A stretch of 63,991 bases of DNA, filler included, from Asterionella formosa (GCA_002256025.1; 8 parts of 8 records of this genome joined end to end with filler, not necessarily neighbours in it), one strand, 5' to 3'; counted from the first letter of the whole stretch, positions 7,196-60,180 are shown. The notes: generated by a model not told the origin, from the letters alone. A program made the numbers and translations.

Positions 7196-7650
7196 TGTAC
7201 CAGGATACCAGGCACCTTGTTATCTGGTACCCTGGTACCTGGTACCAGATACTCCTTTGTAAGCAAGGTTAGCTACCGGTACAAGGTACCTGGTACCTGG
7301 TACCAGATATCTTGTACGGAGTAACTGTTCCATCAGGGACTGCAAGTTGCGGTCATTTTGCTTAAACTAACATTTTAATCTCGGATGAAGATAGCTAAAT
7401 CTTTAGTTTCAGCAAAATTACCGCAACTTGCTGTTACTGGTAATGGTACCCCCGGTATTTTGGTACTCACCTGGTTACTTGGAATGGCATCTGGTATCTG
7501 GTATCTGAGATACCTGACACGAGTACAGGTACTTGTACCAGGTAGCTCCCCAGGGACCTGGTACCAGTTAACTGTACGCACCCGGTCCTGGTGCCAGGTA
7601 TGTGGTCCCTGGTGTCTACCAGAACCAGGTACTCCGCCCAGGTGATCCAT
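7196..7650. repeat. Degenerate (TACCAGG/CCTGGTA)n palindromic array
   Basis: Runs such as CTGGTACCCTGGTACCTGGTACCAG and GGTACCTGGTACCTGGTACCAG; the array lies upstream of the ATG at 7826. Confidence 0.85.
7343..7430. mobile_element. 88-bp MITE (family B) with 27-bp TIRs and 3-bp CTG duplication, possibly PIF/Harbinger-like
   Basis: CAAGTTGCGGTCATTTTGCTTAAACTA ... TAGTTTCAGCAAAATTACCGCAACTTG (2 mismatches); CTG at 7340-7342 and 7431-7433; second copy at 43130-43217. Confidence 0.8.
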
Positions 7651-7825
7651 TAAGTTTACTCCTACAGGGCGGTGTAATTACCGTACATAGCCATATTATC
7701 ATAAAGAAGGTGAGGTTTAATAATAATAATAATACTGTACCCCCGTACGCCCCCTGGGTATATCATATGATCACTCACTTATTTTCAAGGCTCTGTCTGT
7801 ATTCATTTGATTAGATCCAACCACC

Positions 7826-7947
7826 ATGCGCTCCACACAAACTTGCATTCTTTTTCTGGTCAGTCTTTCCCTCTCGTTGGCGTCTGCCAGAAAGATAACC
7901 AGTACTCCTTTGGATGCTCTTGATTACCGCATCTTTCCTCGACGGAC
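7826..7947 (+). CDS. 5' fragment of a secreted or ER-targeted protein, cut by the contig end
   Basis: CCACCATG context; MRSTQTCILFLVSLSLSLASA signal-peptide-like start; open to the gap. Confidence 0.45.
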
Positions 7948-8047
7948 NNNNNNNNNNNNNNNNNNNNNNNNNNNNNNNNNNNNNNNNNNNNTTAATTAAT
8001 TAANNNNNNNNNNNNNNNNNNNNNNNNNNNNNNNNNNNNNNNNNNNN
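7948..8047. other. Assembly linker (N44-TTAATTAATTAA-N44), repeated at 15990-16089, 24003-24102, 32007-32106, 40031-40130, 48051-48150 and 56056-56155
   Basis: Identical 100-bp spacer with stops in all six frames; the intervening segments are 7904-7942 bp long. Confidence 0.97.
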
Positions 8048-8366
8048 GTTGGATCAGCAGTAGACAACTCAACAATATCTTCGACGTCCTCATCAGCTAC
8101 AACGCATTGCGTCTCTTCCGAATCAATGCGAATAGAGGCAGCATCAGAAGTTTCAGCCGTACCCACTACTTTGCTGCTTATTGCGCCAATTAATCGAGAT
8201 ATAGTCGATGTCGGAAGATTGGTATAGAGATGAGCGGACTACTGATTCTTGTATGACTCACGAAGCTGAAAGGTAATGTATACAGAGTACCGTAGTATAT
8301 ATATAACAAAAAATAGTTGGCGCAATATTTAATAGTGTTGTGCTTGCGTATTTACAGTTATTTTAT

Positions 8367-8560: not shown

Positions 8561-9211
8561 ACAAATAACAGAATGATAAGAACGGCCCTAACTAACGAAG
8601 AAAACCCTTTCAATGACCTCACGTTCTGATTGGATTCTATATCTCATGCATCCAGAATCAGCGAACCGACGTTTGATGGTCGCAGGTGATACTTGTACAT
8701 AACTCGTGAGTATTTAGACGATGCCAATTTGTCTGCAGATTTACTTGTAAAATTACCGGTGGTACCTGGTAGTTAAGTACAGTTACTGAACTAACTAAAT
8801 CCATACTGTACCTGGTATACAATATATAAACATGACTACCGTATTACCATACTATCCACACAGGAAACTCATGCATAAAATCATGTTTGCCTGTACACGT
8901 CGTCACTGTAACTAAACAAACTCTTTTTTGTTTGCAGTCGATTTCTCAGGTGAATCAGATTGTTATATCGGTATACCGTATATATCTGAGGTAGAGAGAG
9001 AAATCAGAATACCGGTAGTTACCAATTGTTTCAGCATTATATATAATCCAAGCGAAAGCCAACTACCGGTAATAAATAGTACATGATAAAAACAGAGAAA
9101 ACAAGCAAGGCATCGCGTTCAGAAACGTGCCACGACAAGTGGACAAGCAGCAAAATTTATCTATAAACCATCATAAGGCTAGTACCGTCGACTACTATAG
9201 AACAGCCGACG

Positions 9212-13198: not shown

Positions 13199-13911
13199 GG
13201 CGACTTCCGGCAGTATTTCGTTTTCGTAACTTTCGTCGCCCTTTTGTTTGGCTTTTTAAATTTTCAAATTAAAATCTGCCTACATAGAACATGTTTGCTT
13301 CTCTACTCGTTCCCCATCACATGTAGTGCGGATTATCTGAAACGATATCATCCGCCTTTTTGTTTCACCACGGTGTGACGTAAAACCCAGACTACAGGAT
13401 AGAAGTAGTTGAGGCCACATTCGAGGAAAAAGAGTCAAACTGGAAAAGTCGTGACTCCATTTCTTGCCAAACTTCGTCATTTCAGCATCATGAATATCTT
13501 TGGGGTTCCGACGATTGGACATGCGGATTTAAGAGGAGGTAGGAACAGTTCTCTGCGGCCATTTATCATCCTACTACAACAGAAGTACCTGGTAATACGA
13601 TATTTTATACATACTTTAGTGCAATACATAGCCTACATGCTCGAAAATCATTCTTGTTTTATCGACAATGCATAGGAAGCGAGTGATGATTCTTGTATGT
13701 AAACATTTTTCGTCGTTACCTCCACTCCCAATATTGGAATCCGCCCGTAGGTTCATATTCTTGATGATATGAGAAAGTTTTCTTTTTTTAAGTACAGTTT
13801 CTCTTGCTATTATATAGACTACACAGTTTCCTAAATAGTAACCCTGTTGTTTTGTAACGTTTCTGCAAACAACGCATTCCCACATCACAAATCGTGGTGG
13901 TTTTAATTTCA

Positions 13912-15378: not shown

Positions 15379-16884
15379 TTGCAGGGATGAGGACGATGGC
15401 TGCGATAAAATATGAGTACCTGTACCGGTAGACTACTCAGGAGTACTTGTAATGTACCTGTAGTTTGCCTGCGAGAGCGAACGATGGAGTACCCTGGTAG
15501 GAGTACCTGGTATGGTAGTTAACAAGAGGCGAAATTGTAAAACATTAGTATGAACGATGGATGTGCTCACCGGTATCAATCTCATGTACCGGTACTGGTA
15601 CCCATGTTCATGGCAGTAAGAAATCTACTGGTGCTTGAGGAGCGCCATAAGTACTCGTACATGGAGATGGTATCATATCTATTACATCCATGAATAAAAA
15701 TATACATGTATACCGGTAGTTAGGTACCTGTACATACGGTAGGTACATTCAGACATGACTAATTTTTAAGAGCTAATGCAGAGGTGTTCTCCAAAACGGT
15801 GAAACAGTATTTAGGCCGTTGCTAACCGTTGACCCAAACCAAAACCCAAAAACTTTTTTTTGGGATTGGTTTTGGTTTTGGTCAACTGACGAAAAAACGA
15901 TGCTATCGGTTTTTGGGAAATCCTAAATGCTGTCAACCACCCATCTACTGTGACGTAGGATGACAAAACCATTATAAAAAAAGTAAAATNNNNNNNNNNN
16001 NNNNNNNNNNNNNNNNNNNNNNNNNNNNNNNNNTTAATTAATTAANNNNNNNNNNNNNNNNNNNNNNNNNNNNNNNNNNNNNNNNNNNNTGTTCCAACAG
16101 AAGTGAATAGGTCCAACGAGCGACAAGAGCACTTACGCAATTTGGTTTTGTTTTACATTGGTGCTCCCCAACAAGCGAAACGAGCTGTTGAATCAACTGA
16201 GAAAAAAGGAAATGTGGCTGCGTTTAGTTAACAATTTGTTGTTGTGCTGCCTGTCTCCCAACGATTGTCATCCAAGTACCACATTGATGGCTTCATTAAC
16301 TTAAAGATTCTCCATCCTTCAAAGGCGCAATGTGTCGAAGTCACGATGTTTTTCGTTATGTATTGCGTAAACTTTCTTTTCTTGTCATGTGCTTTACTAT
16401 GACGTATCTTTTCATGAAGCAGCAGGCATTGTTTGTTAACATGACAGAACGATTTCAAAACTATATATGCCATGAATATAGTAATAAAATTTGTAAATAT
16501 ATATATATATATATAATGTTATACATTTATAAAATTCAAAGGCGCTCTCGATATGGAACATCTGATATGGTTAAAATGATCATACTTGCATATACTTAAT
16601 TCGAAAATACTCAATGCACTATATGTCCATTGTTTTCCACGACTAAGACGTGTACCGGTATCATTTCTGAAATTTGTTTGCATCGATATTTTCTACATCC
16701 GTTGAAACTAATTATTTAGACAATTCAATTGGTGTAAGTCATAACCGCCAGGGTTTTGGTAGCAAATTGTTTAAGCCCCTTTTTTGGTTGGGAGCTCTTC
16801 ATGTGTACCGGTACATCATATGACAATAACAATATATCATATATATACAGAGTACCAGTAGCAGATAGTAATTGATATACTGGG

Positions 16885-17175: not shown

Positions 17176-18599
17176 TCATCGAACTTTAAGGAAGACAACG
17201 ACAACAGTTATCAAGTAGTACAATGTCTTCAAGAAACCATAAAGAGGTTCATGGAAACAAGCGACATGTGGGAAATACTGCCGGTATGGAACAAAGAAGC
17301 AAGTTCCAAAATGAGTTTACAAAGAAAAAGCGAATAGGCGATTATCCAAAGCAACCCAATCGGCGATTGGCAGACGTTGGGGGTAATACCCCATAGTCGA
17401 TGGGGACACCATCAGCTACAAGTACAAAGGATCCCGTAATAGATAATGACAGTAATGATGACGTGAAATTGATAGTGAAAGCGATGATGAAATTTCTTTT
17501 TCAGTTGATGATACAAGAAAAATGGCTCCTGTCGATGATGACATTAATAACTCCCGGATGCAGATGGACGACATGGTACCATATCATAAATTTTCTAATC
17601 GCACGGACCAACAAGTACATGACAATCTGAGGGAAAAACATTTTGCACTTGCCAAAGGATATTATCAATTGGTCAATGAACTCAATCACTACAAAGGTCG
17701 TAATTCGGTTCAAAACTCGGCTTTCCATACGAGGTTATCAAGACTCTTGGATTTCAGCAGCCTTATCAGAACGTCGTTCTCACTTAGCTAAAATTGAACC
17801 GAACTATCAATTGTCACAAAGGTTGTGAGTTTTATTTTCAAGACCAAGAAGTTTTGCTGTGAACATGTAAGTTTGATGTTATAGTTTGTGAATTGCAGGT
17901 ACAACTGTAAAACAGAATATCAATTAAATGTGCTTTTTTCTGGTCCCAAAAGAGAATCAAACATCCCGCCCTGTCTATCTGGTCCAAGTAGTATGAAAGG
18001 CATTTCCAATCACAAACAGGATTGGTTTGCCCAATGTTGCCTAACTCGGCTATACACAGTGAAACCGGAGTTAGGCAAAGAAGTGGAGAGTGACCCAGAG
18101 CTTGCCGATTTCATACTCTGGACTTTCACAAAAGAATCGATCTGAATATGGAAGGAATCCTAGTGGAATTGCTACTCCCACCACAAATATCATCTACCCA
18201 CACTCATACTTCTCATTTCCCAACGTAAGCAAAGAGGATATGCATGAATTTGTTGAATCACTTCAACCAAATGTTCCTGAAAAGAATATTGATTATAATG
18301 ACCACAAAAAATCAACAGGACATTGATGACGATGTTGATTTTGAATGGATCTACTAATGGAATCCAATGCATACTTAGTAGTTACATAATAATTATAGTT
18401 AGTGTGAGACTTCTACAAATGCAAGCCATATCATAGATGATAGGAAAACATTGATTCTGCTCTATTTACTATTACTATTAGTGCCGCCTGTACTACATGT
18501 AGCGGTATACCTCCATTTTTACTACTATGGTGGAGTGATAATTTCACGACTGTATTTTCCAGCAAAGCATGTTCGAAGTGGCGCTCAATTTATTATTAT

Positions 18600-21500
18600 A
18601 CATCAATTCATTTTCATTCTATCCTTTTCATATCCTGACTTGGTCATCATTCGCAATTTGCAATGTCTTAGCGCACATTGCAATGGTGTTATCTGTGTAA
18701 CTACAAATTTCGGAAGAACAAATCCCAATCTGAGTCTCACAATCGAAATTGTAGCAACCGTGTTTTTTATGCATATGGTCACTGTCGACATTGCATGCAG
18801 GAACATCGAGTTCCTGGAATACATAGTGAAACTATGTATTGCGGAATTAGAACTCATGTTATTCCTCAACGAGAATTATCTTCCACCAGTTTACTTTGAT
18901 CATCTAATGAAATGGCTGTTCAAGGCAAAAGCGATGAAATATTTTGATGGAAGGTATCAAGCTCCATCCTACCAGACTTTGAAAAAACGCATGGATATTT
19001 CATTTCCACCAACATTAGCTGGTGGTCAACTGTTGACCAAACAAAAAACAGATTAATAACAATTCAAATATGATCATCCCACGCACACTCCATTATTTCG
19101 AACCACCAGTACAGCTCATGGCAGGATTGCTACGTGATTCCGATATCATGCAACATTTTGTATGTCACCCACAAGTGAAACTTACAACTTGTGGAGAACG
19201 CATATATAACGAAGTAACTTCTGCGACTTGGTTTGAAAATGCATTCAACAATTCTCCTGCATCAGAAAATGGAGTGTTGAAGACAGGGTGTTTATTTGTT
19301 GCCCTAGCAGTTTTCAGTGATGGTTCACCTATTGATAAACAAATGAAACATTCCGAGCATCCGTTTTTGCTGACAATGTTAAACTTAACGTTAGAAGGAA
19401 GAAAAAAAGTTGATGGATGGCAATTGGTATGCATCTCTTTTGCCAGACATTGAAGTCAGTGATCTGGAGAAACAAATGAATAATAAGTTATCTGGTGACG
19501 ACTTGTCCTTGTGTAGACTCAAATTATATCATTCTGTTACAGGATTTCTATTGTCGCCTTTCGAAGATCCAAACAAGTCATATGATATTTGGGTTCATGG
19601 TCTTGGTATTTCAAAAGTTTATTTCCAGATTGGAATGATCATTGGTGATACAGAAGAACACAATAAAATTTGTGGCTTCAGGGGTGGTAATGGATTATAT
19701 CAACGATATGACAACCTGGTTTCAACTGAGGATGCTGATAATCCTGATATTGGATGTGAACGTTGTAAAGTGTCAGATGTTAAAAAGTTTTTAAACAAGT
19801 TTCTTGACAAAAATGCATATCCCTATGGAAAATTGCCATGTATCCCACCTGAGTATTGTGTCTCCCAATCTAATGGCAAATACGCAACAGCAAACGAGTG
19901 GTGCTGTGTTATATCGCATAATCCTATTATGTCTGCACTAATAAATCATTTTTTTGGTGGTGACTTAGAAGGATTATTTGGTGCAACTCCATTTGAGGTT
20001 CTTCATCAATTACTACTTGGAATTTCTAGTACATTTTGGAATCTTTGTACAATTATCGGACTATCCCTGAAGAATGGACATGTTTTTTTAAAGAAAGAAA
20101 ATCTCCAGATATTCCAGAAAACATCTCCGATCATAAACGTAACACTGAAACAACAGACTCTGCTTTTCTTGATCAAGAGCAACCGAAGAAACAGGCAAAG
20201 ACCAAAAAGGACACACGCACCAGTTATCAAAAATATCTACACTGGCAAAAATCAAGACCCAACACTTGTACCAGCACCAGAAATGTATTTTCGAAACTAT
20301 ACTTCAAACAAAGTGGCTGCTAGATATATCAATAGTCATTGGGAAAGGCAAAGCGATCGTGATATTCCAAAATTGTCATACAGATTGTCGAAAATGTCAG
20401 GGCAAGAAATCCCTGGATTATGTCTGTTAACTATTTTTTCAATGGGTGGAATGATGGGTTCAGAGAACATGCACCTAGAAAAGGATTTCACATTGCTGTT
20501 ATGGTTATGTATATCTATCAATGACACTTTATTTATACCACAATATACATCAACATGTATTGATATTATAGAGGAAAGGATGAAGAGATTTATGTCAGTT
20601 ACTAAGATTATGATTGGTCCCCAACGGGAAATGATATCTCAAATTGGCTTACGAATGGCAAAATTTCATGGAATGAAACATTACCCTCATCTGATTAGGA
20701 AGTTCGGATCTCCTCTTAATTTCTTTGGTGGATATTTGGAGTCTTTTTTGAAAGACAAATTGAAACGACCCAGTAAGCGTGTCAATGGACAATTACATCG
20801 ATTAAAGCATGACATTTTAACAAGGTCATATGAAACAAGGCAGTTTGCCTTGGCACGAAAAATTGTTTTTGTAAGTGATTCATTACATACAAAAAACAAA
20901 CAAAAGAAGATGAGTAGAGAAAATTCCATCAATGTAAATGAGGGTATTTTAACAGAAATTGATTTCGAAGGAATGATTCCGGATACAATGATGTTGCCTA
21001 GTAGGTCGCCTGAAAATGTGGGAATATCGACTACCAAAATCCATTTTGTCTCAATTGGTTCATCCTGATTTACCGAAGGGGGCCAACTACGTTAAGGGCA
21101 TTGCGAATTCAGCAATAGAAATAGCAAGAATCAAAAGGCTTGATGATGGGGTTGGGCCTGTTTCCATTCTAAGGATTGACTTTTATTATCATGTTAAAAT
21201 TGAAAGTACCGTTCCCGGCCAAACTACTATTTTCAGATGCCATCCGAAATGGAATAATGATTCAAAGGCAGGAATCTCTGGTCGTGAATGGTTTGACTGG
21301 GTCGAAGTGAACTGGGAGAAGGGAGATGGATCAAGCTGCTTCCTACACAGTTCCTGCAAAACTACTTCTTTGGGGAAATGTTATGTTCTCCAACTCAACA
21401 AACATTCTCTTAGCGTGTATTCGTTCCTTGAAAAGTTCAACTGAAATGAAATTCATAAACGTATGTTTTTTGCAAGAGGAGACACCTTATGCAATGATAC

Positions 21501-21827: not shown

Positions 21828-24002
21828 TTATTTGTTCTTTTTCACTCCCAAAGAACCTAAGATGGTCCTTCTCGTTTCGTCCGAAATTTCGCCCCTCCAC
21901 TTTTGAACTGCAGTTCGATATGAGTCTGCAAAATTCTTCTTTAAGTTGATTTCAGAAGGGCTATCATCAGATACAAAATTTTCTTTCAACTTTTTGTCAA
22001 TTTTGATGCATCCAGAAATTTGGCCAAGAGGTGCATGATGATACCATTTGAAGGGAGCAAGTTTGTCATTACTTTGTTGTATCATGGATTTTACGAAGAC
22101 AACTTCATCCTTCTTGAAAGAAGAGTTGCAAGGAACTCGTCCAAATACTTCGTTCAACATTTTTAAATCTAAATAGGATGTCAAAATTTTGTCGATACAA
22201 AATTGAAGAACAGCTATTTCCAACTGAAACATATCCTCACGAGAATTTATCGTTGTCACTTGAGGCCAAACTGTTCCAAGATGAAAGTATGTTGACTTGG
22301 TTGGTGGGTCAGATGTAATGGATAAGAAATCGTCTGTTCGATCTGTTGCTGCCACCTGACGTTTTAAAGCTTTCCAGGACTCAGTCTCCAAACGGAAATG
22401 TGCCCGTTTGCCAAGAAATTTGGTTTTGCCATTCCTTTCTAATTGCAATAGAGTTTCCAACACTGCCTTTCACAATTGTAAAAGGTCCACATGACCAGCC
22501 ACTGTCATCTTCTGGTTGAAATAACATGGAATCATGTTCAGTGGCCATACTGATCTGCAATGGTGCTTTGGTACCAGTATAGAAAGATTCCGAGAAGAGA
22601 ACCCAATTTCTTCAGGTATATGGGATTCTTGTGGAAGATATCCTGTATCGGTGCATAACAATTCCAATTCCTTTCTGCATCTGGGGATGATGCAGTACTT
22701 ACAAGCAAGGTGAAATACTTGATCATAATGTTCGTCCAAACTTGCATCTTTTCCTGGATCAAGGACTTGACATAATCCATCTTTTATAGCAAAAAGATAA
22801 TGCACAAAATCATTGTTTTCCTCCTCATCTGATCTTTTGCAATACACAATTAGCACATAGTTACTTTCGTGATGAAGTGGATGACAATCACCTTGGTATA
22901 TATATGGATTGTTATTACCCTTTTCTGGATTCTCATCCAGATCAAATGTAGCTAACCTTTACATCACTTGGATGAAGTTCATGAAATATATAATGGATCA
23001 TAGAGGAAATTGTTTCAAGGTCCCAATATGCAAGATCTTTAAAATCTGAAGATGATTTTTTGATACCTTTGACTCCATAAAATACAGAGGAGCAATTGCA
23101 TATATCTTGCGGGGTACGAGTATACAACTCTTTCCACAATTTTAGTTGTCCATGCGATTTCGGCAAACTCAAGGAAAAAGCCGTTTGCTTTGGCATAATA
23201 ACTCTACATATTTCACATGCAAACTCTTCACAAAAATAGCTGCCTTCTGGATTGTTTTCAATGATTTTACAAAGAAATTATTTTTCTTCCATGTATGATT
23301 TGGAAAAAGATTCAATTTTGTGTTTCTGACTTCGTTCCCTATTCAGAGCATCAACTGCCTTAGCCAGCATCGCATCTCTGTCTGCATTGATCTTCTTGAA
23401 TTCGAGGTCTTGATCCAGCTCAGAATTTTTCTTGAATATCTTTTCTTTTAGCAATGCAATAGTTTCTCAGCTTTTATGATGTTTATCTTGATGTTCTGGA
23501 CGGATAGTGCGATATGTTTCTTGGTTTTGCAACTTTGCAATCATTTCTACTTCTGAAGTGTTGTCTGCCACATTTCCGCCGATATTTTCATTCATCGCAT
23601 GAATTTGTCCATCAAATGAATGAGAATCACTGAGTTCTTCTTCATTATCAGCGATTTCGGGAGAATGAGGAGCAAAATACGACACTGGATGGTGGAACTG
23701 TGACTCTGTACGAATAGAGTCTTCATCCACGAAGACCAACTGTTTGGGTTTCCTCTTCGAAAGCAATCTTTCCTTCTTTTCAATCTCAGCCACTATTGTA
23801 TCGGCATACTTCATTATTTTTTCTGGAGTATTATGAATCTGTTCAAATTATTTGATCTTTGAGTGTATTCAAAGGAATCTTCGATTGATTTCATAAGTTT
23901 CTTCATCTTCTTTTCCGAAAACATAAAGTCGTGTAGTGTAAACAATGGAAGTAAGTCTCGTTTCTTGTTTGACTGATCCTTTCCATGAAATCCGTGAAAT
24001 GC
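21828..24002 (-). pseudogene. Decayed gene of unknown function (repeat family), convergent with the Plavaka transposase
   Basis: Fragments LETLLQLERNGKTKFLG, LIVYCKRSDEE...VHYLFAI and HPVSYFAPHSP are nearly identical to those at 35320-37400 (+). Confidence 0.75.
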
Positions 24003-24102: not shown

Positions 24103-24909
24103 TGATTTCCAACCGGGAATAAACTATGGAGTAAAAATATTCTCCGGCCGAGACCCAAACGCTACAACAATTGCATACAAATTATCAGAATCAAGAACCA
24201 AATCTTTAGGGATGACATCCAACACACAGAGCACATGGGAAGGCAGGTCAAAGAGACTTCGAAATAAAAGCAATGATCATGCAATAAAAAAAAATTCAAA
24301 GAAGATGAGTAGAGGAGATACAAACCAAGCACACCGAGCAATATGCTTGGGGGCACAAATGACATATTCACTTCCAGTCACTAGCAGAATGAGCTCAGAA
24401 GAACTCGAAAATATTCAAAGAAAAGCCAGAAGAGAAAGGCCGGCTGGGAAAACTGGGATTCAACCAAATTGTTCCGAAAGCTGTTGTATTTGGTCCAAGC
24501 ACAAAAGGAGGATTGAAAATGGTGGATTTGGCGATATTAGAGCAGGGTATATGAGCCGCAGAAAACTTTCTTTTCCACAAATATGCAAACAATGAATTCA
24601 CGAAAAAATGGACATATCACCGCAGATAAGTCAACTTGAATCTGGCAGAACGGAAAGACTTCGTTTCCTTGCTTATTCTCAAAATTTAAGATACATTAGT
24701 ACCGTTGACAGTAAAAATCAAGTTGATCAAAGCACATCAAGAAAATGGAACAGCAAAGGAGAAACACACAATATCCGCAGAAATGAACATCACAGCGGAT
24801 GCTATGGAAATCAAACTTTCCGCAAAGATTAACATCGGCAGCAACTGGGGGGGGGNNNNNNNNNNCCCCCCCCCCCACACCCCCCCCCCCCCCCCCCCCC
24901 ACCCCCCCC

Positions 24910-24953
<44 letters not shown>

Positions 24954-43129: not shown

Positions 43130-43217
43130 CAAGTTACGGTCATTTTGCTTAAACTAACATTTTAATCTGAGATAAAAACAGCTAAATCTTTGGTTTCAGC
43201 AAAATTACCGCAACTTT
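43130..43217. mobile_element. 88-bp MITE (family B), copy 2
   Basis: Colinear with 7343-7430; left flank GGTACCAG, right flank CACAGGTA. Confidence 0.8.
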
Positions 43218-43337
43218 CACAGGTAACTGTATTTCATAGTTAACATTAATTAAAAGACGGTTTGTGCTATGCGGAGTACATAATTAATAAGCACTGCCAA
43301 GGAAGGGGGACGGTTTCTACTGGTATGTACTTACTCC

Positions 43338-43402
43338 TGAAGGTCGTAATCGAGATTTTTAGCATAGTCTTTGTCTATAAAACGTGTATAACCGGACCTT
43401 CC
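43338..43402. mobile_element. Tiny MITE (family A), copy 2
   Basis: Reverse complement GGAAGGTCCGGTTATACACGTTTTAT...GCTAAAAATCTCGAT matches 493-570; no TSD visible. Confidence 0.5.
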
Positions 43403-43677
43403 CTTGTAATAGCACCACCTCGTACCCAATATGTATCATACTAATTTCTTGCAATAAAACGGTACATACCGGTAAATACCACGGTCGTCTATCATATAGC
43501 GGTATACAGGTACTGTAATCAAAATTAAGATCATAAAAAGAATGCTTCCATCAAAAAAGTCCGGTTGTCGACAATGACCACCAGGATTCTTGTAGTCCTG
43601 CTGTTTCTACCCACCTTCGTTCACCCACACGACGTCATTTCCATTCATACGTGTCACTCCTCTGCTCCTCGATACAG

Positions 43678-47265: not shown

Positions 47266-47532
47266 AATGTTGCGTTTCTGCTGAAAATATGTGCGTAAGA
47301 CAGTAATCTTCAAGAAAAAATACAATCTGTATACCGGTACATTGCTGCACCATCATGATGATGCGTCAGCGATGATGCTTTTTAATAAATATTTATATTT
47401 CTTGTTGGGAGATAGCTACTATATAACCGGTATTACACCTTGCTGCTGCTGTGCGTACCGGTAATCGGCACGAGTAGCTTGCAAATATATTTTATTATCT
47501 ATGTTTATATGTCGAAATAATTTTAGGAAAAA

Positions 47533-47589
47533 GATATTTCGTCCCCCTATATCGATATTTCGTCCCCCTATATCGATATTTCGTCCCCC
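47533..47589. repeat. 21-bp tandem repeat x2.7
   Basis: GATATTTCGTCCCCCTATATC, exact copies. Confidence 0.9.
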
Positions 47590-48221
47590 TCTTTTTGATA
47601 ACCCCTTAAACCCTACTAGCCTACATAATCTTCGTATAAACCACCAATACTTTTTTGCCACACGAATCTTAGTTGACTCCTCCATGACACTTGCAAACAT
47701 GATGGAACTGGCAGCAGAAATATTTTCCGAACGGAAATTATTTCTGCTAGTGATTTACACATGCTGCTGGTGGGTCAATCTCATCGGACCAAAGCGCTGG
47801 CAGCTGACTTGCTTCGCATCACAGGCGATGGCAAGCCACAAAGAAGTCAACAGCACAACAACCCTGCAATGACGACGTTAAAGGACAGTGCTGGAAAGTT
47901 CATTTTTACGCCCCTCCAGGTGTATACACAATTGATCAGAAGACCCCGACGACAGGATTCGTCAACGTTGGGGACAATGACGGTAGTGATATCAATTCAA
48001 TCGACATTGACATTAGATCCGGCAGCTCGTTTAACAATGAGTTTGTAGACNNNNNNNNNNNNNNNNNNNNNNNNNNNNNNNNNNNNNNNNNNNNTTAATT
48101 AATTAANNNNNNNNNNNNNNNNNNNNNNNNNNNNNNNNNNNNNNNNNNNNTATACGTATACCCGGTATTCATCGCATCCTCCTCTGCCCCCGCATAAAAT
48201 TCACTCATTGGCTGTCTGTAG

Positions 48222-49559: not shown

Positions 49560-52057
49560 CTACTCGGCCGGAGAATTCATAACCTCAAACTTTCGTCGCT
49601 TGCATGATGGTGAGGAAACAAGTCGCGAGGAGTTACTTGCAGTGAGTAGCGAAGCAGTAAAAGTTTCTGAATTGGCAGCCAGGTTGTCCAGTTTAACTCG
49701 AGGGCCGGGTGGGGATTTGAATGGTGTGAAGGAGTGGTCTGCTGGACTGAAATCTAGTTCTCGGCTCCAGAAGGATCCATCCTTGGACCTGGCAGTGGCT
49801 GGAGTCATTCCAATTATAGAAGTGTCGAAAGGACTTGGCGCAGCAATGTCTCTAGTAGAGTCATCAGAGAAGGACTCATCTTGAGTGACCTGTGTAATGT
49901 CCGCAGCGGGGGTATGAGGTTCAGCTTTCATGATCATTGCCTTATCCTCAAAGAATATTGTTCCCCTGGTCTTCGCTTGCAAAACGTCACGACTGTCTTT
50001 AGCGATGCTGGGAGGTGGCATCTTCTTCTTATCATCTGCAAAGGATGCCGACAAATTAAGGAATTTACTTGAATCCCGAAGTGTTGTCTTTGGTCGTCCC
50101 GCCAAAGCGATCTGTGAAACAGGAGATATGGAAACATGACGGATAGTATGAGCATACCTGTCATCGCCATCACCTATTCTGAACCGTATAACAGTTGGAG
50201 TTGATGGTTTTGGTGTTTTGAGCACTGGATCAAGTTGATTTGGTTCGTCATCTCCAAAGAGAGTCTTGCTTAGATCACCATTTCGCATTGCACTTGGAGA
50301 AAAGAGTTGGTTTTCTTCTCCGTTGAAGGGCGTCGACGCAAATGCACGTCTAAGATCAGTCAACGGTGTCATTCCTTTTAAATCCAATTTGGAAGAGGAG
50401 CTGTAGGAGCTACATGGCGAGTCAAACATTGTTTTTCGGCTGCTTTCCAAGTAGCTGGACAGTTCAGAGTCCATTTTGAATGGAGTTTTGAGAGTGCTTC
50501 CAGGCGTCACACTCATCCCAAAGAATGGTGACGAGCCAACATGGTCCTCGTGATTTCTGTTGCTTTTGCCAGGAGAATGGGCAAAATTACTGCCATGTCT
50601 TCCCGCTGTTGGTGGCCCAGAGCGCATTCTACGATTCGACATTAGCTCTCCTTTAGGCTTCATATTCTCCTTGTTGTCATTTGGTTTTCCACGTGGCATC
50701 GCATGCATTGGAATTGGAGGATAATAGGGATGATGCATATACATACTTGCGTGATGATAAGTTGGGTGCATGTGGTGTGGACGCGATTTGGGATGTCCAT
50801 GAGATGGAGAGTCATCGCTAGACGATTTTTCGATTGATGGCCGCCGAGTTTTCTGGCCACTCTTCCCTGTTCGAATTCTCGTTATGCCGTCCTTGCCCCG
50901 AACTGCAGCCAGCACACCGTCAATATCCCCCATGAAATCGAACCTACCATCATCTGTGTATCTTATGTTTATCTCGTCTACCCCTTGCTTCTTGGCCAGG
51001 AATTTTTCAATCTTTCTCCTCATTGATGAGTTCCAGTGATTCTTAATTGCATTGTCGGTTCTGGTTTTAGCAAGGAAATAGGGTCGAATGAGATTTACTG
51101 TTAATAGTTGATGTTCACAACAACGACATTCTGTACATACCTTCCGGGGAGCAGCTTTGCGATTTCAGCCCATCGATTACCGAGGGTGGTGTGCGCTTCA
51201 AGTATCGCTCGGTCTTCTTCCAGTTTCCAAGCTTCTTTGCAAATGTCCGGATTTAAATGGTTGTGCCACCTTTCCCGGCACTGCTTTCCAATTCTACCCG
51301 GCAGATTCGAGGCAATCAAGGACCATTTTTTGGCCCCGTATTTCTTGACCAATTCCATAACCTTACGGTCTTCATCTGTTGTCCATGGCCCCTTGACGAG
51401 TGATGGCTTGAGGACTTTCTGCCACCTGTGCAGACATTGGACTTCTGTTCGATTTGGGAGCCGAATCGAAATGAGTTTCCAGTTCTTGGCTCCGTGCTCG
51501 TCTACAGCCATACGTAGGGCATCGTCCTATTCAGGGAAGAGATTTTCTGAATCAGCACAATATTTGCACAGTTCGGGAATGAAACTAACAAAGAGTAAAC
51601 TCACCTCCTCTTGCGTCCACTTGGTCCCTTGCTTCTTTCCAAACGACTGGGAAGGCTTTCCAGTGACAGTTCCAACAGAAGGAGACGGAGGGTCTTCCTT
51701 CGTTGCAGCCCCCGAGCTAGTGCGGCTATTGCTGCTGTTCTTGTTGTTGATATTACTGCTGCTGCTGTTATTGGACAAAGGATGGATTGGTTTGGGCATG
51801 CTACTCTTGGCTTTCATCGGTTTCTGCAGCGGCGGAGGCGGAGGTCTGGAGTAATGAGGCATCATGTGCATGGGATACATGTGCGGAGGAGGCGGAGGGT
51901 ACTTGGAATAGTACGAGTAGGAAGGAGGGTGTGACATGCCTCGCTGAGGAGGAGGCATTGGCATCAGCATGGGCTGTCGTGAGTGGCCATTGTGGCTCCG
52001 CGGCTGTCCGCCGCTGCTTCGTTGCTTGTGTGAATTGCTTGCTGTCGGCGGCGCCAT
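49560..52057 (-). CDS. MYB3R: R1R2R3-MYB transcription factor (exons 52057-51605, 51526-51141, 51060-49560)
   Basis: KWTQEE|DDAL...NWKLI...QCLHRWQKVLKPSLVKGPWT...GRIGKQCRERWHNHLNP...GNRWAEIAKLLPGR|TDNAIKNHWNSSM; many S/T-P sites in the C-terminus. Confidence 0.93.
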
Positions 52058-52524
52058 GGAAACTGATTCTACGGGAAGTTTCGAATTGAAAAATCAGAAT
52101 CAAATCAGAATATGTTCTCTTCCGTTCGTTATTCAATCAACGCTCCAGACAAATCAACGGCTCTTGCTTGACCTTTCCTTGATGTGACAGCAGCAGCAGC
52201 AGTAGACGCAGGTAGCTATTCACAAATGGGAAGTCAATGAGGTCGGAGGAGCAACGAGATCAACAAAGGCGGTATCCAACAGCACATTTAGAAACAGCAA
52301 ATGATGTGAGAGGAATCAAACAAGGGAGTCAACGGTAAAATACGCTCTCACTATCATTAGGTAACAGTAAAGTGTCCTTCGGTTTGGATAGGATGGATTC
52401 AAACTTTAAATTTGAATCTATCATCAAATATATACAAGTCTGAATATATTGGAATGATTCATCGTTGGTGTACGTGTGACGTGGTATGATGGCTGCATCG
52501 ATTATTCTGGTGATAATTCTTTAC

Positions 52525-52595
52525 ACCGGTACCTCGTATCAGGTACCTGTACCTGTACCTGGTACCAAGTACCTGGTACCTGGTACCTGGTACTG
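52525..52595. repeat. (GGTACCT)n array upstream of MYB3R
   Basis: GGTACCTGTACCTGTACCTGGTACCAAGTACCTGGTACCTGGTACCTGGTAC. Confidence 0.9.
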
Positions 52596-52699
52596 TATCA
52601 TAAATCAACGCAGTGGTGTGTCGTGCCAGGGAAATACTGAAAATATGTACAAATGTGTTGTACTGTTGATTGCATACATACTTACTGTCCTCCTGGTCA

Positions 52700-55600
52700 G
52701 CAGCAGATACCCTATAGTGGATATAGAATACCGGTAGTCGAGCACGTACATACAAATTGGCATATCACATACAAGATAGGCAGTGTTTCCAAAAGTATCA
52801 TTGACAAGCAAAATTGAAGTGAATAGCTCCAAATCTGCTTTATCTCCCGTACTAGTAGGCATCGATTTAGAAATTATTGACGAATAGAGCATTGCCGGCA
52901 TTGGTCTTGGCAGAGTTGGTGATGAGTGAGATGGGTTTGACCTGCTTTGTACGCACATCTCCAACCATGCTGTGGTCATTGCAGAGGTGGAGTGTGTGAG
53001 GCAAGTGGAGAGAGGAAGACCAAAAGCAAAGGGCAGTGACCCCTTTCATCAGTTGGAACGGAAATTTGATTGTGATAGGCGGTAGAGACATCGGTTATGA
53101 GGGTGTGGGTTAGGTGGGCTGCTTGCTGGGCTGTGATGGTGGCACCAGCAGCCATGGTGGATGAAGTCATTGCAGGATCTCCATCATTGTGCCAGCCATG
53201 GAGTGGGTTTGAATAATTTTGATACAATTACTACTAGAAGCACCATCTGGTTGGATCATCATAGGGTTTGTCTGGGAAATGTTGATAATTCTATATGGTC
53301 ATGGCCTGGCACCAGCGGGTGAGTGTGATGTGGCCCCTAAGAAGCAAGTAAATGGTTCCAACCGATAGAAGATTGTTGAATAAATGCAGTTTAGGCAGAA
53401 AATTGGAGTGCGTCGGAAGGGGGAGGCGGAGGAAAGGGCCAGAGGCAGGGGTGGAATGTCTCCTCACTCCGGGAGTGAGGAGACATTCCACCCTGGGGCC
53501 CAGGACTGAAGTCCATGAGTGCTGAGGATGGCTAAGGGAATGTGGGGTCGTGGTGGTGTCTGAATTGTGGTTTGAAGTGTCATGGCAAGAAGCAATAGGT
53601 GTCCATTGCGAATCTCTGAAGATGACAGCTGCTGGGCAGCAGAGTACATGATCATGAGTTTCTAGGGAAGGGTTGCAATGAGTGAGGACATAATGGTGAG
53701 TGTAAGTGACCCCTTCTGGCTGTGTAGGGTATAATTTGTTGGCCATTGGCCATTATGTAATTTGAACAAGGCAAGTTTCATGCCATTAGAGAGATGTTTG
53801 TACTAAGCGCTGGAAGAGGAGAGTCAATCGATAGAGTCTGAATCAGCAGAAGTCCAACCATCTTTAGACTCAAAGTAAGCATATTCTTGCTTAGTAGGTT
53901 TTTAGTAAGAAGTTAGTGAAGTCGTGACCAGATTGGAGGAAACTGGGCGACCTGCTATCAGAAGGGTAGCAGGCGGGACTAAAGGCGAGAGAACATGAGC
54001 AAGTGGCTGGGAGAGGGGGCACGCTGATGATATGCTAGATGGGTGAGACCATCTGCCTGAATATTGAGTTTGGCTGGCAGGGTATAGTAAGATAATTAAA
54101 GAAGGGTTTGTCGTCATCTTGGTGATTCTTGACATGGATGGCGGTGATGTGAACGGGTAGAGAGGAGGCAAGAAGGACCACCATTAGAAGAGCTGAAGAT
54201 GTCAAATCCCAGTCTGGTCGAAGAGAGCGGCGAATAGAGTGGTGATGTTGGGTGCGTGTTTAGTTGAGCATCCGAAAGGTGCCAATGCCGGCTGCAATCA
54301 TCATCAGCCATGACATTGGCAGTGCCTGCGATGTGGGAGAGGGTACTGTGGTAGAATTGGTAGTAGTGGCGCTGGTGGAGGGCTTGCAGTCAGAGGAGGA
54401 AGGCGGCCTGGACATTGGTGGAAATGGAACCCTGCTTGGACCAGTAGAGTGTCAGGTATGTATTATGTATAAAATAGAAGAATGCAGAATACCTGATACC
54501 ACTAGCATTCATCATTCAATATCGAGGAATGGCATACTGGTATAGCAACAACAGTAGCTAGTCAAGATGTGTCCAGCAATGACGTTGATGAAGTGCTTCG
54601 TTGTTATTGGGGAGTTTCTAATAATCCCCATATATTTCCTTACCGGCATTCTTTCCTGACCAGCCGACGGAATAAGTCATTCCTGTCATTCCAACAAGTG
54701 AAGAACATCGATGTTGTGTGGTCTCTGCGTCTAAATCTACACAGGTAATTGACAACAACGATAAAGTTTGAAATGAAGATCGCCAGGTTTGTGTAGCTGG
54801 TAGATCTTGTTTCTATCTCCACAGAGTCTATTGATTCCGATTTGCTTGATATTAAGCAGTCATCCCGTTCCAAAGCAAAAGAGAAAGGTACAGCAAAGGA
54901 AAATCCAGATATCATGTTACAAATCTGGAGATGAGCAATTCACGATAGCTTTCCAAAGAATTACAAAATTATTAGGGTAACTGATAGGAAAGTAAATGAA
55001 CAGGTCGAGGCATCAACCTCCTTTTTTCTAGTAAGGATGTGGATGTATTGAAAGGTTTCGAAAACCGCTAAGAAACAAAGAAACACATCAGTTAATTAAG
55101 TGGTGGAAAAGTCTGTGCGGGGAAAGGTTAATGTTGCTGTTTCGGCATATGGTGTGGAATTGGAACAGTTGAATAATCCCCTTTATATTGTTTCACCATC
55201 ATTTTGTTGAGTGGAATCCATGTCCTGTGGTTCATTCTTCGTGAATTGCCAAGTATTTGATTCAGCCTTCTATATTGTTTTGATCCAAGATATGATGGCA
55301 TAGTTGAAGTATGTGATCCTGAACATGGAGTGTGTTTGAAAAGTCATTCGAAATGCATTCACAAGATTGCACATAAATACCGAATTTGCCCAGGGTTTGA
55401 TGTCAATAAAGAAATTATACCATCAAAAAATGTGGTCAAGTTGAACACAGAGTTCGACAAATGGAAATTAGTCAGGAAGAAGGCTAGATCACTATGTCGC
55501 AAAAGTTTTTTGAAAACATTGGGTGAGAAACCAAGGATCCGAGATTACGCTGATGGCAAACTTTAGTTTAAGATTGCTGGTGGTGGATGTCATTTACCAA

Positions 55601-56055
55601 CCAACCAAGGATGGCAGTTGGTCATGTGGTACCTTTAGGATTGTGAAGTTTATGGAATAATAACTTCAGTTACACCAGCACAGTGGAGAAACGGTGTTTA
55701 CGGGGAAACTGAGGCATGGTTAACGATTGATGGTTGGGATACATTCTTGGGAATGAAATTTAATGCAAATAATGGAATTTGATGGTCATTTCCTGACGAT
55801 ACCACAGATTTCGGAACTGAAGATGCGGTTATGGAATATGTTTGAAAAAAATCGTGGGTTCGTGGGTTAACAAAGTTGCAGCAATGGAGTTTAATCCTAA
55901 TTTTGAGTTATCTCCGATGTTACTAAGTGATACCAAGCAAGCTGACATATCTTAGTGAAATGCTTCAACATAGCTTAAAATCATTCCATTGGCATGATCA
56001 TGAAGAGCGAAAACAAGAAAATTGACAAAGAATTTGAACGTGCTTTGGTTAGTAT
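52700..56055 (-). mobile_element. Decayed LINE (RNase H plus CCHC finger), internally deleted
   Basis: Minus-strand HVKNHQDDDKPF (about 54100-54140), CNPSLETHDHVLCCP and QQSSIGWNHL. The upstream part (54600-56055) is assigned by position only. Confidence 0.65.
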
Positions 56056-56155
56056 NNNNNNNNNNNNNNNNNNNNNNNNNNNNNNNNNNNNNNNNNNNNT
56101 TAATTAATTAANNNNNNNNNNNNNNNNNNNNNNNNNNNNNNNNNNNNNNNNNNNN

Positions 56156-57590: not shown

Positions 57591-57679
57591 ACCAGTGAAT
57601 GAGGGAATCCACAATTATCCGGAATATTTTAGACACAAACTTACGAATATAAGGCAGGGTACTATATGCATTCCTTTAT

Positions 57680-59731
57680 TTAATTATCTTTCTTAGCTTC
57701 TTCATCTTCTTGCGTCTCTCCTTCCTTCGGTTCAGCCTCTACTCGCGTCACCGTGGCTGAGTCAACAACCTCATGCTCTACTTCAAACTCTTGATCAGCT
57801 CCCAAGAACTCTTGCGACATAACAGAGATGATAAACTTGTATTTCCCAGGCACAGCTGGCGCCATGAGCTGTACCTTGACCTTTCCAGACTTTTGTGCCA
57901 TATTTTGAACAATCATGGGCCATGCGGTCAGTAATCGATTCTCGGGTGCTTCGGATGCAAATTTGTCGATGTCAGCTGGCGCAAATGTCTTGGTGAGTTC
58001 GTTTTCAGGAACTCCCAGTTTTGGGGCTATACTACCACCCAGTTTCTTGGCTCTTACCAAGATCCACCACCCCTCACGGTATGTTTGAAGGGCGATTTGA
58101 GGAGGAATCCCTTGCTGCTGAGCGGCGGCAATCTTGACTTGAGTAAATCGCTCAGCATGTGCACGACTCATTTCCAACGAAAGGACACACAAGTCTTCGG
58201 TGGCAATCTCCTCCTCATCTGGCGTCTCAATCTGCACTTGGCTAATTTCCAATCTAGGAATACCAGCTTCGCCTCCGTACTGTTTTTTCATGACACCATG
58301 GAACCAGTCTATGGTCTTTTTGTCCGTTGGCTTTTCAACTCCGATCTTGAACATACTTACGGTCTCGACAATAGTCTTGGCAAGGCGGTAGGATTGAACT
58401 GTCATGGCAACACGAAGCGCGGCTTCCAACAAGAGACCACATCTCTGGCGGTACTCCATGGTTCCCTTGAAGTAAGTTTGGTCAATTAGTCCCTTTGAAC
58501 TGGCCTCTAGAAGGTCAGGGTGAGAATTGAGCAAGATGGAGTTCAAGCGTCCCATTGTCATGCAAAGATTTCTTCTCACAGCAGGGTGATCCATCGCACT
58601 TAGATTCTTGCCTTTGTATTCAAAAGTCGCATTTTTCAAGAAACGCAGATCTTGCGGCGGCCATCGCTTGCCTTGAGCAAGTGTTGTTTCCACCCACTTT
58701 TGTCCCAAAACCCCTTCATCAATGCCCTCCAACTTGACGGATAACTTGCCAGTTGCCGCAGCCAATTGTTTGGCAGCATCGGCCTTAATCTCTTCTTCCT
58801 TCCTCGCCTTGGCAGCTGCTGCTTTGGCTTCATCATCGTCACCTTCGTCTTCATCCCAAACCCCATCGTCCAAATCGAAGGTATCCTTTTTCTTCAATTC
58901 CTTGGCGGATGCATCTTTCGATTTTACTAGTTTCTCTTGCTTGTATTCTTCCACCTTTTCAATTTGCGCCATTGATAGGACAATGTTCTCTGGAGTTGTT
59001 GCAATGCACAAAAGAACGTCCAAATGAGTCGATTCAGGTCCCAATGTGCTCGACAAATATGCAGCATCGGCACCTGCGACGATGTTGCTCTTTTCAGTTT
59101 CCTTCACCTGCTCCTCCGTCTTTCTGGTCCAATTCACAACGAAGTAAATCAGGGCAGCAAACACGCCTAAATAGAGCACTACTAGGACGACAGCCGTGGT
59201 TCCCTGCGGCTTTAGGAGCCAACTTGGTAAAGCGAAGTGGAAAGTATTCCCTTGGAACTTCCCGTCGGGATGTCCGTACTGTTCATAATTACGCTTTCCT
59301 TCTTCTGTCGTGAGAGCTCGATAGGCATTGTTGATCTTCTGGAATAGTCCTTTATCTCCTCCCTTGTCTGGATGGTGTTGTTTGGACAGCGCGCGATAGG
59401 CTTGCTTGATGACAGTCGCGTTGGACGACTCTGACACGCCCAAAATATCAAATGGATCGAACATACTGAGCTCGTTCTCCCGCATCGCATTATCAATACT
59501 AGCGACGCATTTGGCATACAGGAATACGGAAGCAACGACACTGCCGAGCAAGAAGGGGAACGTCTTGCCCGTCAAGCGGATGGACGGTGGAATGGAAGTG
59601 CCGTTGTTTCTGACAGTCAAGTTCGCGTACACTAAATAAAGCACCCGCGTTCCAAATATGATGCTGTACATGCCTAGTGCTGCCGCTAACGGCATCAAGT
59701 AGAAGGGAACTCCTTCGTCTGTTGACGACAT
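57680..59731 (-). CDS. SEC63: SEC63-like translocon J-domain protein
   Basis: Three TMs around a J-domain (FDPFDILGV...HPDKGGD...NYEQYGHPDG...ALPSWL); C-terminal GWWILV...AP..PGKY...SQEFLGADQ. Confidence 0.85.
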   Translation of the reverse strand: MSSTDEGVPFYLMPLAAALGMYSIIFGTRVLYLVYANLTVRNNGTSIPPSIRLTGKTFPFLLGSVVASVFLYAKCVASIDNAMRENELSMFDPFDILGVSESSNATVIKQAYRALSKQHHPDKGGDKGLFQKINNAYRALTTEEGKRNYEQYGHPDGKFQGNTFHFALPSWLLKPQGTTAVVLVVLYLGVFAALIYFVVNWTRKTEEQVKETEKSNIVAGADAAYLSSTLGPESTHLDVLLCIATTPENIVLSMAQIEKVEEYKQEKLVKSKDASAKELKKKDTFDLDDGVWDEDEGDDDEAKAAAAKARKEEEIKADAAKQLAAATGKLSVKLEGIDEGVLGQKWVETTLAQGKRWPPQDLRFLKNATFEYKGKNLSAMDHPAVRRNLCMTMGRLNSILLNSHPDLLEASSKGLIDQTYFKGTMEYRQRCGLLLEAALRVAMTVQSYRLAKTIVETVSMFKIGVEKPTDKKTIDWFHGVMKKQYGGEAGIPRLEISQVQIETPDEEEIATEDLCVLSLEMSRAHAERFTQVKIAAAQQQGIPPQIALQTYREGWWILVRAKKLGGSIAPKLGVPENELTKTFAPADIDKFASEAPENRLLTAWPMIVQNMAQKSGKVKVQLMAPAVPGKYKFIISVMSQEFLGADQEFEVEHEVVDSATVTRVEAEPKEGETQEDEEAKKDN

Positions 59732-60024
59732 GGCCAGATGCAATTGTGGCTTTGTGTTTTAATGAATACCAGTCTTTGGAATTTTTGATCACCCTGATAC
59801 CTGGTGTGTGCCATTTTATTATAAACTTAATTAGCCATCATCTGCCGTATGATACATCAAACATCAAGCAAACGACTGAACTATTAACACTATTATAAAA
59901 ACCGGCAACAAATAATGAAATAGGTATGTTTTCTGGTCGCTACAGCATTATTGAATAGACATAATCTACGAGGAAGGCTTCCACCTGGAAGGTCCGATAA
60001 ATTCGACTCCCGTGGTACTTTTAA

Positions 60025-60180
60025 TTACCAGGTACCGACGACCCACCCGGTAGTACGATACCTGGTATGAAAATGTGGGTGCGTGCACCGGAACGGTACC
60101 AGGTACCAGGTACCGTTACCATCCAGGTACCACCGTTACCAGGTACCAGGTACCAAGTTCTCCTACATACCTGGGACATG
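60025..60180. repeat. (TACCAGG)n array between divergent SEC63 and SerRS genes
   Basis: GGTACCAGGTACCAGGTACC and TACCAGGTACCAGGTACCAAG. Confidence 0.9.

Follow-up and report, generated by a model that had tools for sequence, protein, structure and literature searches.

The footprint of a Tc1/mariner transposon, left by end joining, consists of the element's first or last 2-4 nt between TA dinucleotides, and the canonical footprints of Sleeping Beauty, in the accessible portion of the same report, are TACAGTA or TACTGTA, that is, TA followed by C(A/T)G and a second TA (PMC6943129). In oomycetes, motif discovery has yielded the palindrome TACCGGTA: as motif M94 it is a 'high-confidence' palindrome of Phytophthora infestans promoters, where it occurs at 0.13-0.22 per kb, is scored as conserved, and is over-represented in promoters induced in germinated cysts (p = 1.2e-4) and, among other motifs, upstream of RXLR, elicitin and PcF genes (PMC3597505). 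Its sister motif M93, TACATGTA, has 4150 promoter occurrences in P. infestans; in the accessible text of that study, M93 and M94 both lie outside the six motifs that were tested with reporters (PMC3597505). In Plasmopara halstedii, 206 genes are reported to have the motif ATACCGGTAT (streme-5) upstream, and it is there taken to be the same as GTACCGGTA from previous work on Phytophthora (PMC10031896). Here we describe the same octamer, TACCGGTA, together with a nonamer form, TACCWGGTA (W being A or T), in a 63,991-nt stretch of the genome of the diatom Asterionella formosa (GCA_002256025.1; eight record parts joined with filler), which we call the window and to which all counts refer unless related loci are named, and we weigh how the two words arose.

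Two further systems bear on the comparison. HIP1 of cyanobacteria is an iterated octameric palindrome that is common inside genes. The NuwaI group of the PIF/Harbinger-ISL2EU-Spy (PHIS) transposon superfamily is defined by a 3-bp CWG duplication; the accessible part of its description reports it from 16 animal genomes only, with inverted repeats that usually start GGG (PMC4482050). For the octamer, nonamer and array words in diatoms we found no paper, and on mariner-like elements in diatoms one unrelated review, in a literature search that was thin in subscription journals.

Results

Exact TACCGGTA occurs 22 times in the window against 0.25 expected, and exact TACCWGGTA 27 times against 0.24; 0 of 100 dinucleotide-preserving shuffles reached either count. 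An initial annotation of the window, made from the sequence alone, had estimated about 20 octamers where about one was expected and had named a series of clusters; the excess is confirmed, and each named cluster contains exact matches where it was placed. GGTACC, GTACCTGG, TACCTGGT and other overlaps of the two words are the top non-homopolymer 7- to 9-mers; the homopolymer words that rank above them stem from a run bordering an assembly gap (24850-24953: a G run, ten N and some 90 bases that are almost all C), which is itself probably an assembly or scaffolding artefact.

The form of the word is tightly restricted. Between TACC and GGTA there is no spacer in 22 cases, a single A or T in 27, a single C or G in one and the 2-nt spacer 'AT' in none, and the same rule holds in 10 related loci (no spacer, 20; A or T, 52; C or G, 1). 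Among 36 ACCGGT sites, 22 carry both the T and the A flank and 9 a single flank; the outer T and A are part of the word, fixed as strongly as the inner bases. Only three one-mismatch variants are raised, the others being near background: TACTGGTA/TACCAGTA (13 observed, 2.6 simulated), TACCTGTA (9 observed, 2.3 simulated) and CACCGGTA (7). The first of these are CpG-transition products and the commonest form of decay, in a window with a CpG observed/expected ratio of 0.71. Exact octamers stand well above the count of any such variant, and many are single, in unique sequence, without a wider flanking consensus.

To compare copies of the same site we used the terminal repeat of an 88-nt miniature inverted-repeat transposable element (MITE; family 1 below) as bait against a metagenome collection, which returned 46 loci; the material compared is the one 64-kb window and about 15 kb of related short contigs, and the metagenome runs containing the window stretch are labelled freshwater, lake or algae. 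True 88-nt MITE copies are present in 11 of the 46 loci (L001, L002, L004, L013, L018, L022, L024, L027, L035, L037 and L042), and all 11 are motif-dense, the 1.9 kb of L013, for example, containing 5 octamers and 16 nonamers. Recurrence on unlinked contigs, which the initial annotation had noted, holds for these related metagenome contigs. Loci that share only a word of the bait (19-26 nt, or no BLAST match) are mostly motif-free, with five stray octamers in L005, L026 and L031. Three of the motif-dense contigs, L013, L024 and L042, are variants of one locus, 93-97% identical; since Rfam finds the start of small-subunit ribosomal RNA at the ends of L024 (first 69 positions, E = 4e-18) and L042 (first 47, E = 1e-9), their arrays lie in a ribosomal DNA (rDNA) spacer of a related diatom. 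These arrays, about 1.5-1.8 kb upstream of the 18S gene and in a region that is not a Pol II promoter, are the densest we saw. L002 shares with window 32842-33273 a block of about 430 bp at 89% identity, with an array at the matching upstream place in both; in these two loci the arrays cannot be aligned unit by unit. A DNA run from a different study, X3, is 95-99% identical to the window.

Empty and filled versions of a site could be set side by side at window position 43410, at two TAs inside the family-1 MITE and at four places in the rDNA spacer. In X3, TACCGG is added behind 43409, directly before the TA at 43410-43411, which creates a new TACCGGTA in the promoter of the GT49 gene; of the four indels listed for the 6434 bp compared, it alone exceeds 3 bp. 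At the first MITE TA, five copies at other loci read GCTTAAAC, and L013 also lacks an insert; L024 reads GCTTACCAGGTACCGGTAAAC at this TA, 13 bp longer (7 + 6 added). Because the MITE consensus gives the ancestral state, the event in L024 is an insertion and not a deletion elsewhere. At the second MITE TA, where eight copies could be aligned, both window copies, L001 and L018 read AGCTAAATC and L022 reads AGCCAAATC; between one and three units are present there in L004, L013 and L024.

The rDNA-spacer variants, whose differences are mainly indels of motif units, tell the same story over 1346 aligned columns: of ten gap runs, five are motif units, of 7, 13, 7, 6 and 6 bp, and the remainder are four 5-bp runs of non-motif sequence and one 2-bp run inside a rearranged unit. 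L013 reads CAAATAAATACCGGTATGC and L024, on the same strand, CAAATACCGGTAAATATGC, so that the 6-bp unit sits at two TAs 4 bp apart. Every empty site compared is a plain TA with no partial motif nearby, and the net gain is 6, 7 or 13 bp. Since the variants differ by exact CCGGTA or CCWGGTA at a plain TA, the palindrome appears to be written by TA-targeted insertion, and that some process of this kind makes the word we regard as highly probable. The earlier suggestion of a self-propagating palindrome produced by mutation bias is in substance supported, the bias taking the shape of exact 6- and 7-bp insertions at TA.

We then asked where the words lie relative to genes, dividing the window into coding open reading frames (ORFs) backed by Pfam or RNA (22.6 kb), 5' flanks of 600 bp at 12 gene starts (5543 bp), five convergent gaps (644 bp) and all else (34.3 kb). 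Among the 49 exact matches, 32 fall in 5' flanks, 16 in other non-coding DNA, one in coding DNA and none in convergent gaps, corresponding to 5.8, 0.47, 0.04 and 0 per kb. The 5' flanks, 8.8% of the window, thus hold 32/49 matches at a density 12-fold higher than that of other non-coding DNA, and 10 of the 20 non-coding clusters lie in them (binomial P = 1e-4); TA dinucleotides occur at 91 per kb in 5' flanks and 67 elsewhere, no large difference. The 5' bias is real within the window. In the window, sites precede ORF starts by 50-500 bp, many of them in divergent gaps, and no distance is sharply preferred.

These figures agree with the initial annotation in placing clusters upstream of most genes, and they speak against equal density in all non-coding DNA, the outcome that it had named as fatal to its own reading. 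It had also seen no motif in short convergent gaps; we likewise found none, but the five gaps total only 644 bp, so that this absence carries no weight (P = 0.81). Its remark that long coding sequences contain no exact octamer holds except for one match, the octamer at 47332 in the first codons of a stop-to-stop PPR ORF, which is probably upstream of the true PPR start.

Arrays seem to have a growth of their own. Identical W is found in 27 of 31 adjacent W-W unit pairs, so arrays lengthen mostly by slippage or tandem duplication of the 7-bp unit, with independent hits in the minority; there are five junctions between 7-bp and 6-bp units, and two 7-bp indels inside arrays among the rDNA-spacer variants. 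As single strands, the arrays form long hairpins (z = -3.3 to -5.1, with shuffles as reference), which is expected from a self-complementarity that only W interrupts; these hairpins plausibly aid slippage.

The motif is a preferred landing site of two MITE families whose 3-bp target duplication, CWG, is the centre of CCWGG. Family 1, whose terminal inverted repeat is CAAGTTGCGGT(A/C)ATTTTGC, has two plus-strand copies in the window: copy 1 (7343-7429), with CTG on both sides, and copy 2 (43130-43216), 92% identical to it and inserted at the CAG of GGTACCAGGTA. Of the 13 ends of this family on each side, CWG flanks 8 on the left and 7 on the right; four copies have the same triplet at both ends (CTG/CTG twice, CAG/CAG twice), and the wider context is GGTAC-CWG-GTACC. 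Summed contig depth in X3, about 20 in unique DNA, reaches 6229 over copy 2 and 1233 over the array next to it; this is not a copy number, and indicates many look-alike contigs in that sample. Family 2, of about 210 bp, is present on the plus strand at 4867-5070, where its right end abuts CAG and then GTAC, and at 32599-32804, where it has CAG on both sides and is inserted in ACCAGGTAC; the empty site of this family in L002 reads TACCAGGTAC. A partial family-2 copy lies near 702-741, and the inverted repeats of the family begin GTGAAG... / GTGAGC....

The MITEs are insertions into arrays, not the source of the arrays. By analogy with a related element, for which precise repair after excision is described in the accessible part of PMC4561436, excision of a MITE would restore the motif rather than create it. 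Like NuwaI elements, as far as the available account describes them, the two families have a CWG target duplication, terminal inverted repeats and an empty site in a relative; unlike them, they reside in a diatom, have repeats that start CAAG... and GTGA..., and target the motif context GGTAC-CWG-GTACC (PMC4482050). No autonomous partner, that is, a DDE transposase together with a Myb/SANT ORF, was found among the window ORFs. Family 1 was also considered as a footprint donor with TA duplications and CCWG ends, and was dropped, CWG duplications fitting more copies.

Pfam supports the GC/PDE, USE1/ankyrin, kinase, GT49, PPR, epimerase, MYB, BipA, Sec63/DnaJ, SerRS and hydrolase genes, and with them most of the gene labels first proposed; PLAC8 and S9 found no Pfam match among the scanned ORFs. 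Four sites (8763, 8809, 9010 and 9064; 8763-9071) lie 100-400 bp upstream of the GC/PDE ORF. A cluster at 15410-15740 (sites 15423, 15504, 15587 and 15711, with decayed units) is upstream of a minus-strand multi-exon gene, and five sites at 30632-31047 occupy the divergent gap between the USE1/ankyrin gene (minus strand) and an ORF at 31187 (plus strand). An array of units A, T and A (39353-39428) is placed 50-125 bp upstream of the kinase ORF end. The divergent gap 42756-43536 holds an array at 43018-43128, directly left of family-1 copy 2, the X3 insertion site and, at 43467-43474, an TACCGGTA that precedes the first ATG of the GT49 ORF by about 70 bp. Further on are two TACCGGTA in the divergent PPR / epimerase gap (47332-47463), an array of four TACCTGGTA plus one TACCGGTA upstream of the minus-strand MYB gene (52540-52736), and an array of six TACCWGGTA in the divergent Sec63 / SerRS gap (60026-60152). 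No exact motif lies upstream of the hydrolase gene in the window.

RNA contigs of the GT49 gene from two runs both start at 43580, inside the ORF, and so do not define the transcription start; contigs from RNA runs that carry array or MITE look-alikes have loose ends at 43014, 43034 and 43127-43129 and are no proof that the array is transcribed here. On the other side of this gap, joints in RNA contigs from two or three runs mark minus-strand GT..AG introns at 41786-41868 (83 nt) and 42227-42433 (207 nt) in the gene at 41868-42755. The closest named relatives of SerRS are diatom proteins (Cyclophora, 79%, then Seminavis, Chaetoceros, Thalassiosira and others), and its best match overall is 93% identical; the sequence itself thus marks the organism as a diatom. 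The 5' region of the epimerase gene also contains three tandem units of about 21 nt (tatcgatatttcgtccccc...; 47533-47590), and from 47422 on the summed depth of X3 is 240-755 against about 20, look-alike sequence being abundant in that sample. GC skew is strongly positive (0.23) at 52000-56000, where the BipA-like gene has its 5' part, rich in introns.

The 16 matches outside recognised 5' flanks are at 316, 481, 582, 608, 5536, 7236-7536, 13586, 16653, 16806, 33568 and 35045, and some adjoin transposon remnants. The first four form a loose cluster (316-615; three TACCGGTA at 316, 481 and 608, one TACCAGGTA at 582) next to retroelement remnants and outside the range covered by the initial annotation; weak remnants of this kind, with integrase-core and zinc-binding domains both below the Pfam cut-off, are seen at 1292-2188 (minus strand). 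An isolated TACCGGTA at 5536-5543 has unique surroundings. Left of family-1 copy 1 is an array of GGTACC, TACCTGGTA and TACCGGTA units (7196-7320), and right of it a degenerate array of decayed units (7436-7650). An isolated TACCTGGTA (13586-13594) lies past the 3' end of GC/PDE, in no recognised 5' flank. Two isolated TACCGGTA (16653-16813) are upstream of Plavaka-like transposase ORFs: the stretches 19037-21441 and 18403-19053 (both plus strand) have ORFs with a match to a Plavaka (KDZ/CACTA-type) transposase (E = 2.6e-7) and a 557-aa ORF without Pfam match, together probably a large DNA transposon, whose ends were not found. The last two are isolated TACCGGTA at 33568-33575 and at 35045-35052, about 280 bp outside a duplicated block (35326-37388).

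That block is one arm of an inverted duplicate of 2.1 kb (21840-24002 and 37388-35326); the arms are 87-89% identical and contain several ORFs without Pfam match, and one of them runs into a masked stretch. Considered as a donor, the duplicate was rejected, having no terminal repeats and resembling a gene duplicate. A scan for donors as TA-flanked inverted arms starting CC returned pairs that were array-derived or due to chance only. The window further contains a reverse-transcriptase fragment at its end (63741-63989, minus strand), paired 44-N blocks at regular intervals of about 8 kb (7948-8047 and 15990-16089 among them) and one 338-N block (41279-41616); the comparison with contigs of the sequencing runs covered 6.4 kb free of N.

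Discussion

Given insertion at TA, we lean towards reading the motif as a mutational scar, neither a piece of a transposon nor an ordinary site built by point mutation, and more specifically as the excision footprints of a Tc1/mariner-type transposon, a reading that we hold with confidence and doubt in about equal measure. CCGG or CCWGG and a second TA are inserted at an existing TA, giving TACCGGTA with a net gain of 6 bp or TACCWGGTA with one of 7 bp; new units often join earlier ones by sharing a TA, which makes the GGTACC junctions, and arrays then extend mainly by 7-bp slippage, plausibly aided by their hairpin-forming, nearly self-complementary sequence. The putative donor would be a TA-inserting cut-and-paste transposon of the Tc1/mariner kind with ends reading CC...GG. 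Its footprint, with or without the extra middle base, could derive from these ends or from self-complementary CCGG / CCWGG overhangs, which would account for the uniform products. The pile-up in 5' regions and the rDNA spacer might reflect landing in open chromatin together with the intolerance of coding DNA to 6-7 bp insertions, and the arrays have since turned into preferred landing sites of the two CWG-duplicating MITE families.

The resemblance to Tc1/mariner footprints, as far as the available account describes them, lies in the two bounding TAs against one in the empty site, the fixed centre with an A-or-T option and the varying presence or absence among copies (PMC6943129). Several observations weigh against the proposal. 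The diatom centre is 4 or 5 nt, compared with the 2-4 nt given for Tc1/mariner (PMC6943129), and the scars are also unlike such footprints in their abundance (about 0.8 per kb), their arrangement in arrays and their concentration in 5' regions. Polarity is certain only for the events inside MITEs, so that the other indels are possibly deletions between two TAs. A TA-flanked donor with CC...GG ends and unique inverted arms was not found in the window and up to 16 related loci (about 80 kb), and no Tc1/mariner transposase domain was found among 131 window ORFs of at least 75 aa compared with Pfam. One-sided products are not in excess (TACCTA, TACCATA and TACCTTA, 17, 5 and 2 observed against 23, 12 and 6 simulated); repair, if it is the source of the scars, is unusually uniform. 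Tc1/mariner elements are not known to target promoters strongly, and the 12-fold 5' bias therefore needs targeting to open chromatin or selection. Finally, the enrichment of the identical octamer in oomycete promoters would be more simply explained by a conserved binding factor.

That last point opens the strongest alternative, which we rate as possible though doubtful: a conserved stramenopile cis-regulatory palindrome, in which a dimeric factor reads TACCGGTA and tolerates an extra central A or T, selection keeps the promoter sites, and insertions are merely the route by which sites arise. Recurrence in oomycetes is its best argument at the level of sequence: the octamer is identical in P. 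infestans M94 and, as ATACCGGTAT, in P. halstedii promoters (PMC3597505, PMC10031896), and, in the portions of those reports available, it is palindromic and enriched upstream of genes (within about 500 nt of start codons), in a lineage that, like diatoms, is stramenopile. The same portions mention no 9-mer form, arrays or insertional origin, and their motifs are computational predictions, M94 being absent from the six that were functionally tested (PMC3597505). In the window, the location of sites 50-500 bp upstream of ORF starts, many in divergent gaps, and the excess of exact octamers over any one-mismatch variant also suit a bound site.

The factor might be of a general nucleosome-excluding type; in yeast, such factors bind rDNA spacers as well as many Pol II promoters, and the diatom arrays likewise extend to the rDNA spacer. 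An 8-nt site of a yeast general factor was observed 0 times in the window against 0.5 simulated, and the oomycete sister word TACATGTA is not enriched there (2 observed, 1.9 simulated). What a binding factor leaves unexplained is the exact insertion at TA. Site turnover is fast, the unit being at different TAs among variants and array content differing between the window and L002; units enter the interiors of MITE copies too; there is no sharp distance preference; and up to six overlapping units per array are atypical for a single factor. The initial annotation had offered a general promoter or nucleosome-exclusion element: its 5' concentration is borne out, and its octamer proves to be a predicted oomycete promoter motif (PMC3597505), and the cell may also use the palindrome as a factor-binding site. 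M93 and M94 are both TA, a 4-base palindrome and TA, the two-plus-two form of a Tc1/mariner footprint, so that the footprint reading is testable in oomycetes.

Decidedly less likely is instability independent of any transposon, in which a hairpin-prone heptamer microsatellite would spread by slippage and by templated break repair into TA microhomologies. It would fit the uniform W of neighbouring units (27/31), the 7-bp unit indels inside arrays, the strong array hairpins and the fact that most insertions seen are within about 100 bp of an existing array. Moreover, more than 110 bacterial contigs, from Acidimicrobiia, Gemmatimonadaceae, Planctomycetota, Cellulomonas, Rhizobium and others, contain (GGTACCW)n arrays 3-7 units long, which like the diatom arrays grow in 7-bp steps. 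The isolated octamers at 5536, 33568 and 35045, however, are hundreds of bp from other units, and insertions are always at TA and always of complete units, where templated repair should give varied microhomologies and partial units. The bacterial repeats often grade into other heptamers and show the single octamer at chance level (13 in 0.99 Mb), in contrast to the singletons, mixed 6- and 7-bp units and 5' bias of the diatom; we judged them a separate phenomenon. A 20-nt array word and a 22-nt MITE word had no match in viral contigs.

We consider a HIP1-like palindrome, the analogy first drawn for this window, very improbable; here a DNA methyltransferase, a restriction-like enzyme or a repair bias would drive the word through its action on CCGG / CCWGG. 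As with HIP1, an octameric palindrome is dispersed and far above chance (22 against 0.25); its CCGG / CCWGG cores are classical methylation sites, and CpG-transition variants are its commonest decay products. The analogy fails on distribution, since the motif is nearly missing from 22.6 kb of coding ORFs (1/49), and on origin, new copies being whole-unit insertions and not substitutions converging on the word; the TA boundaries, the 9-mer sister form and the tandem arrays are further differences from HIP1. Hardly credible at all is an origin of the clusters by decay of a single transposable-element family, for example of its subterminal repeats, an outcome that the initial annotation had itself set against its reading: an 88-nt MITE does lie inside two clusters, all 11 related contigs with it are motif-dense and the window has other transposon remnants, but among 20 repeat pairs in a self-BLAST of the window none joins two clusters except that MITE, which has its own ends and CWG duplications and was inserted into arrays, and many octamers stand alone in unique sequence. 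The clusters, homologous in nothing but the motif and that MITE, are therefore not pieces of a single transposon.

The footprint reading can be carried further, tentatively and on balance against the odds as we see them: a TA-targeted insertion process, active or recently so, may write one palindrome into accessible chromatin across stramenopiles, the oomycete palindromes being the same scars. On this extended and equally unlikely view, the diatom arrays could act as nucleosome-poor promoter landmarks and as a landing pad for CWG transposons, and three layers would be in play: the footprints of one transposon, the promoters of the host and the target choice of a second transposon. Transposon-type scars and the oomycete-predicted motif are already known; added to them here are an unexpected accumulation on a genome scale and a second layer, of transposon targeting.

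With the two MITE families, CWG-duplicating transposons of the NuwaI-like kind, reported from animals, now reach into diatoms as well, and their choice of a palindrome in the host genome bears on the safe landing sites of transposons and on the engineering of diatom promoters. For motifs discovered in stramenopiles, the footprint reading is a concrete alternative interpretation; there the available accounts link the Phytophthora and Plasmopara octamer to effector promoters (PMC3597505, PMC10031896). If it is true, the most over-represented non-coding word of this diatom would be the record of a sequence-specific insertion process and not a selected signal. It would then be a rare case in which the scars of transposons, not the transposons themselves, shape promoter sequence genome-wide.

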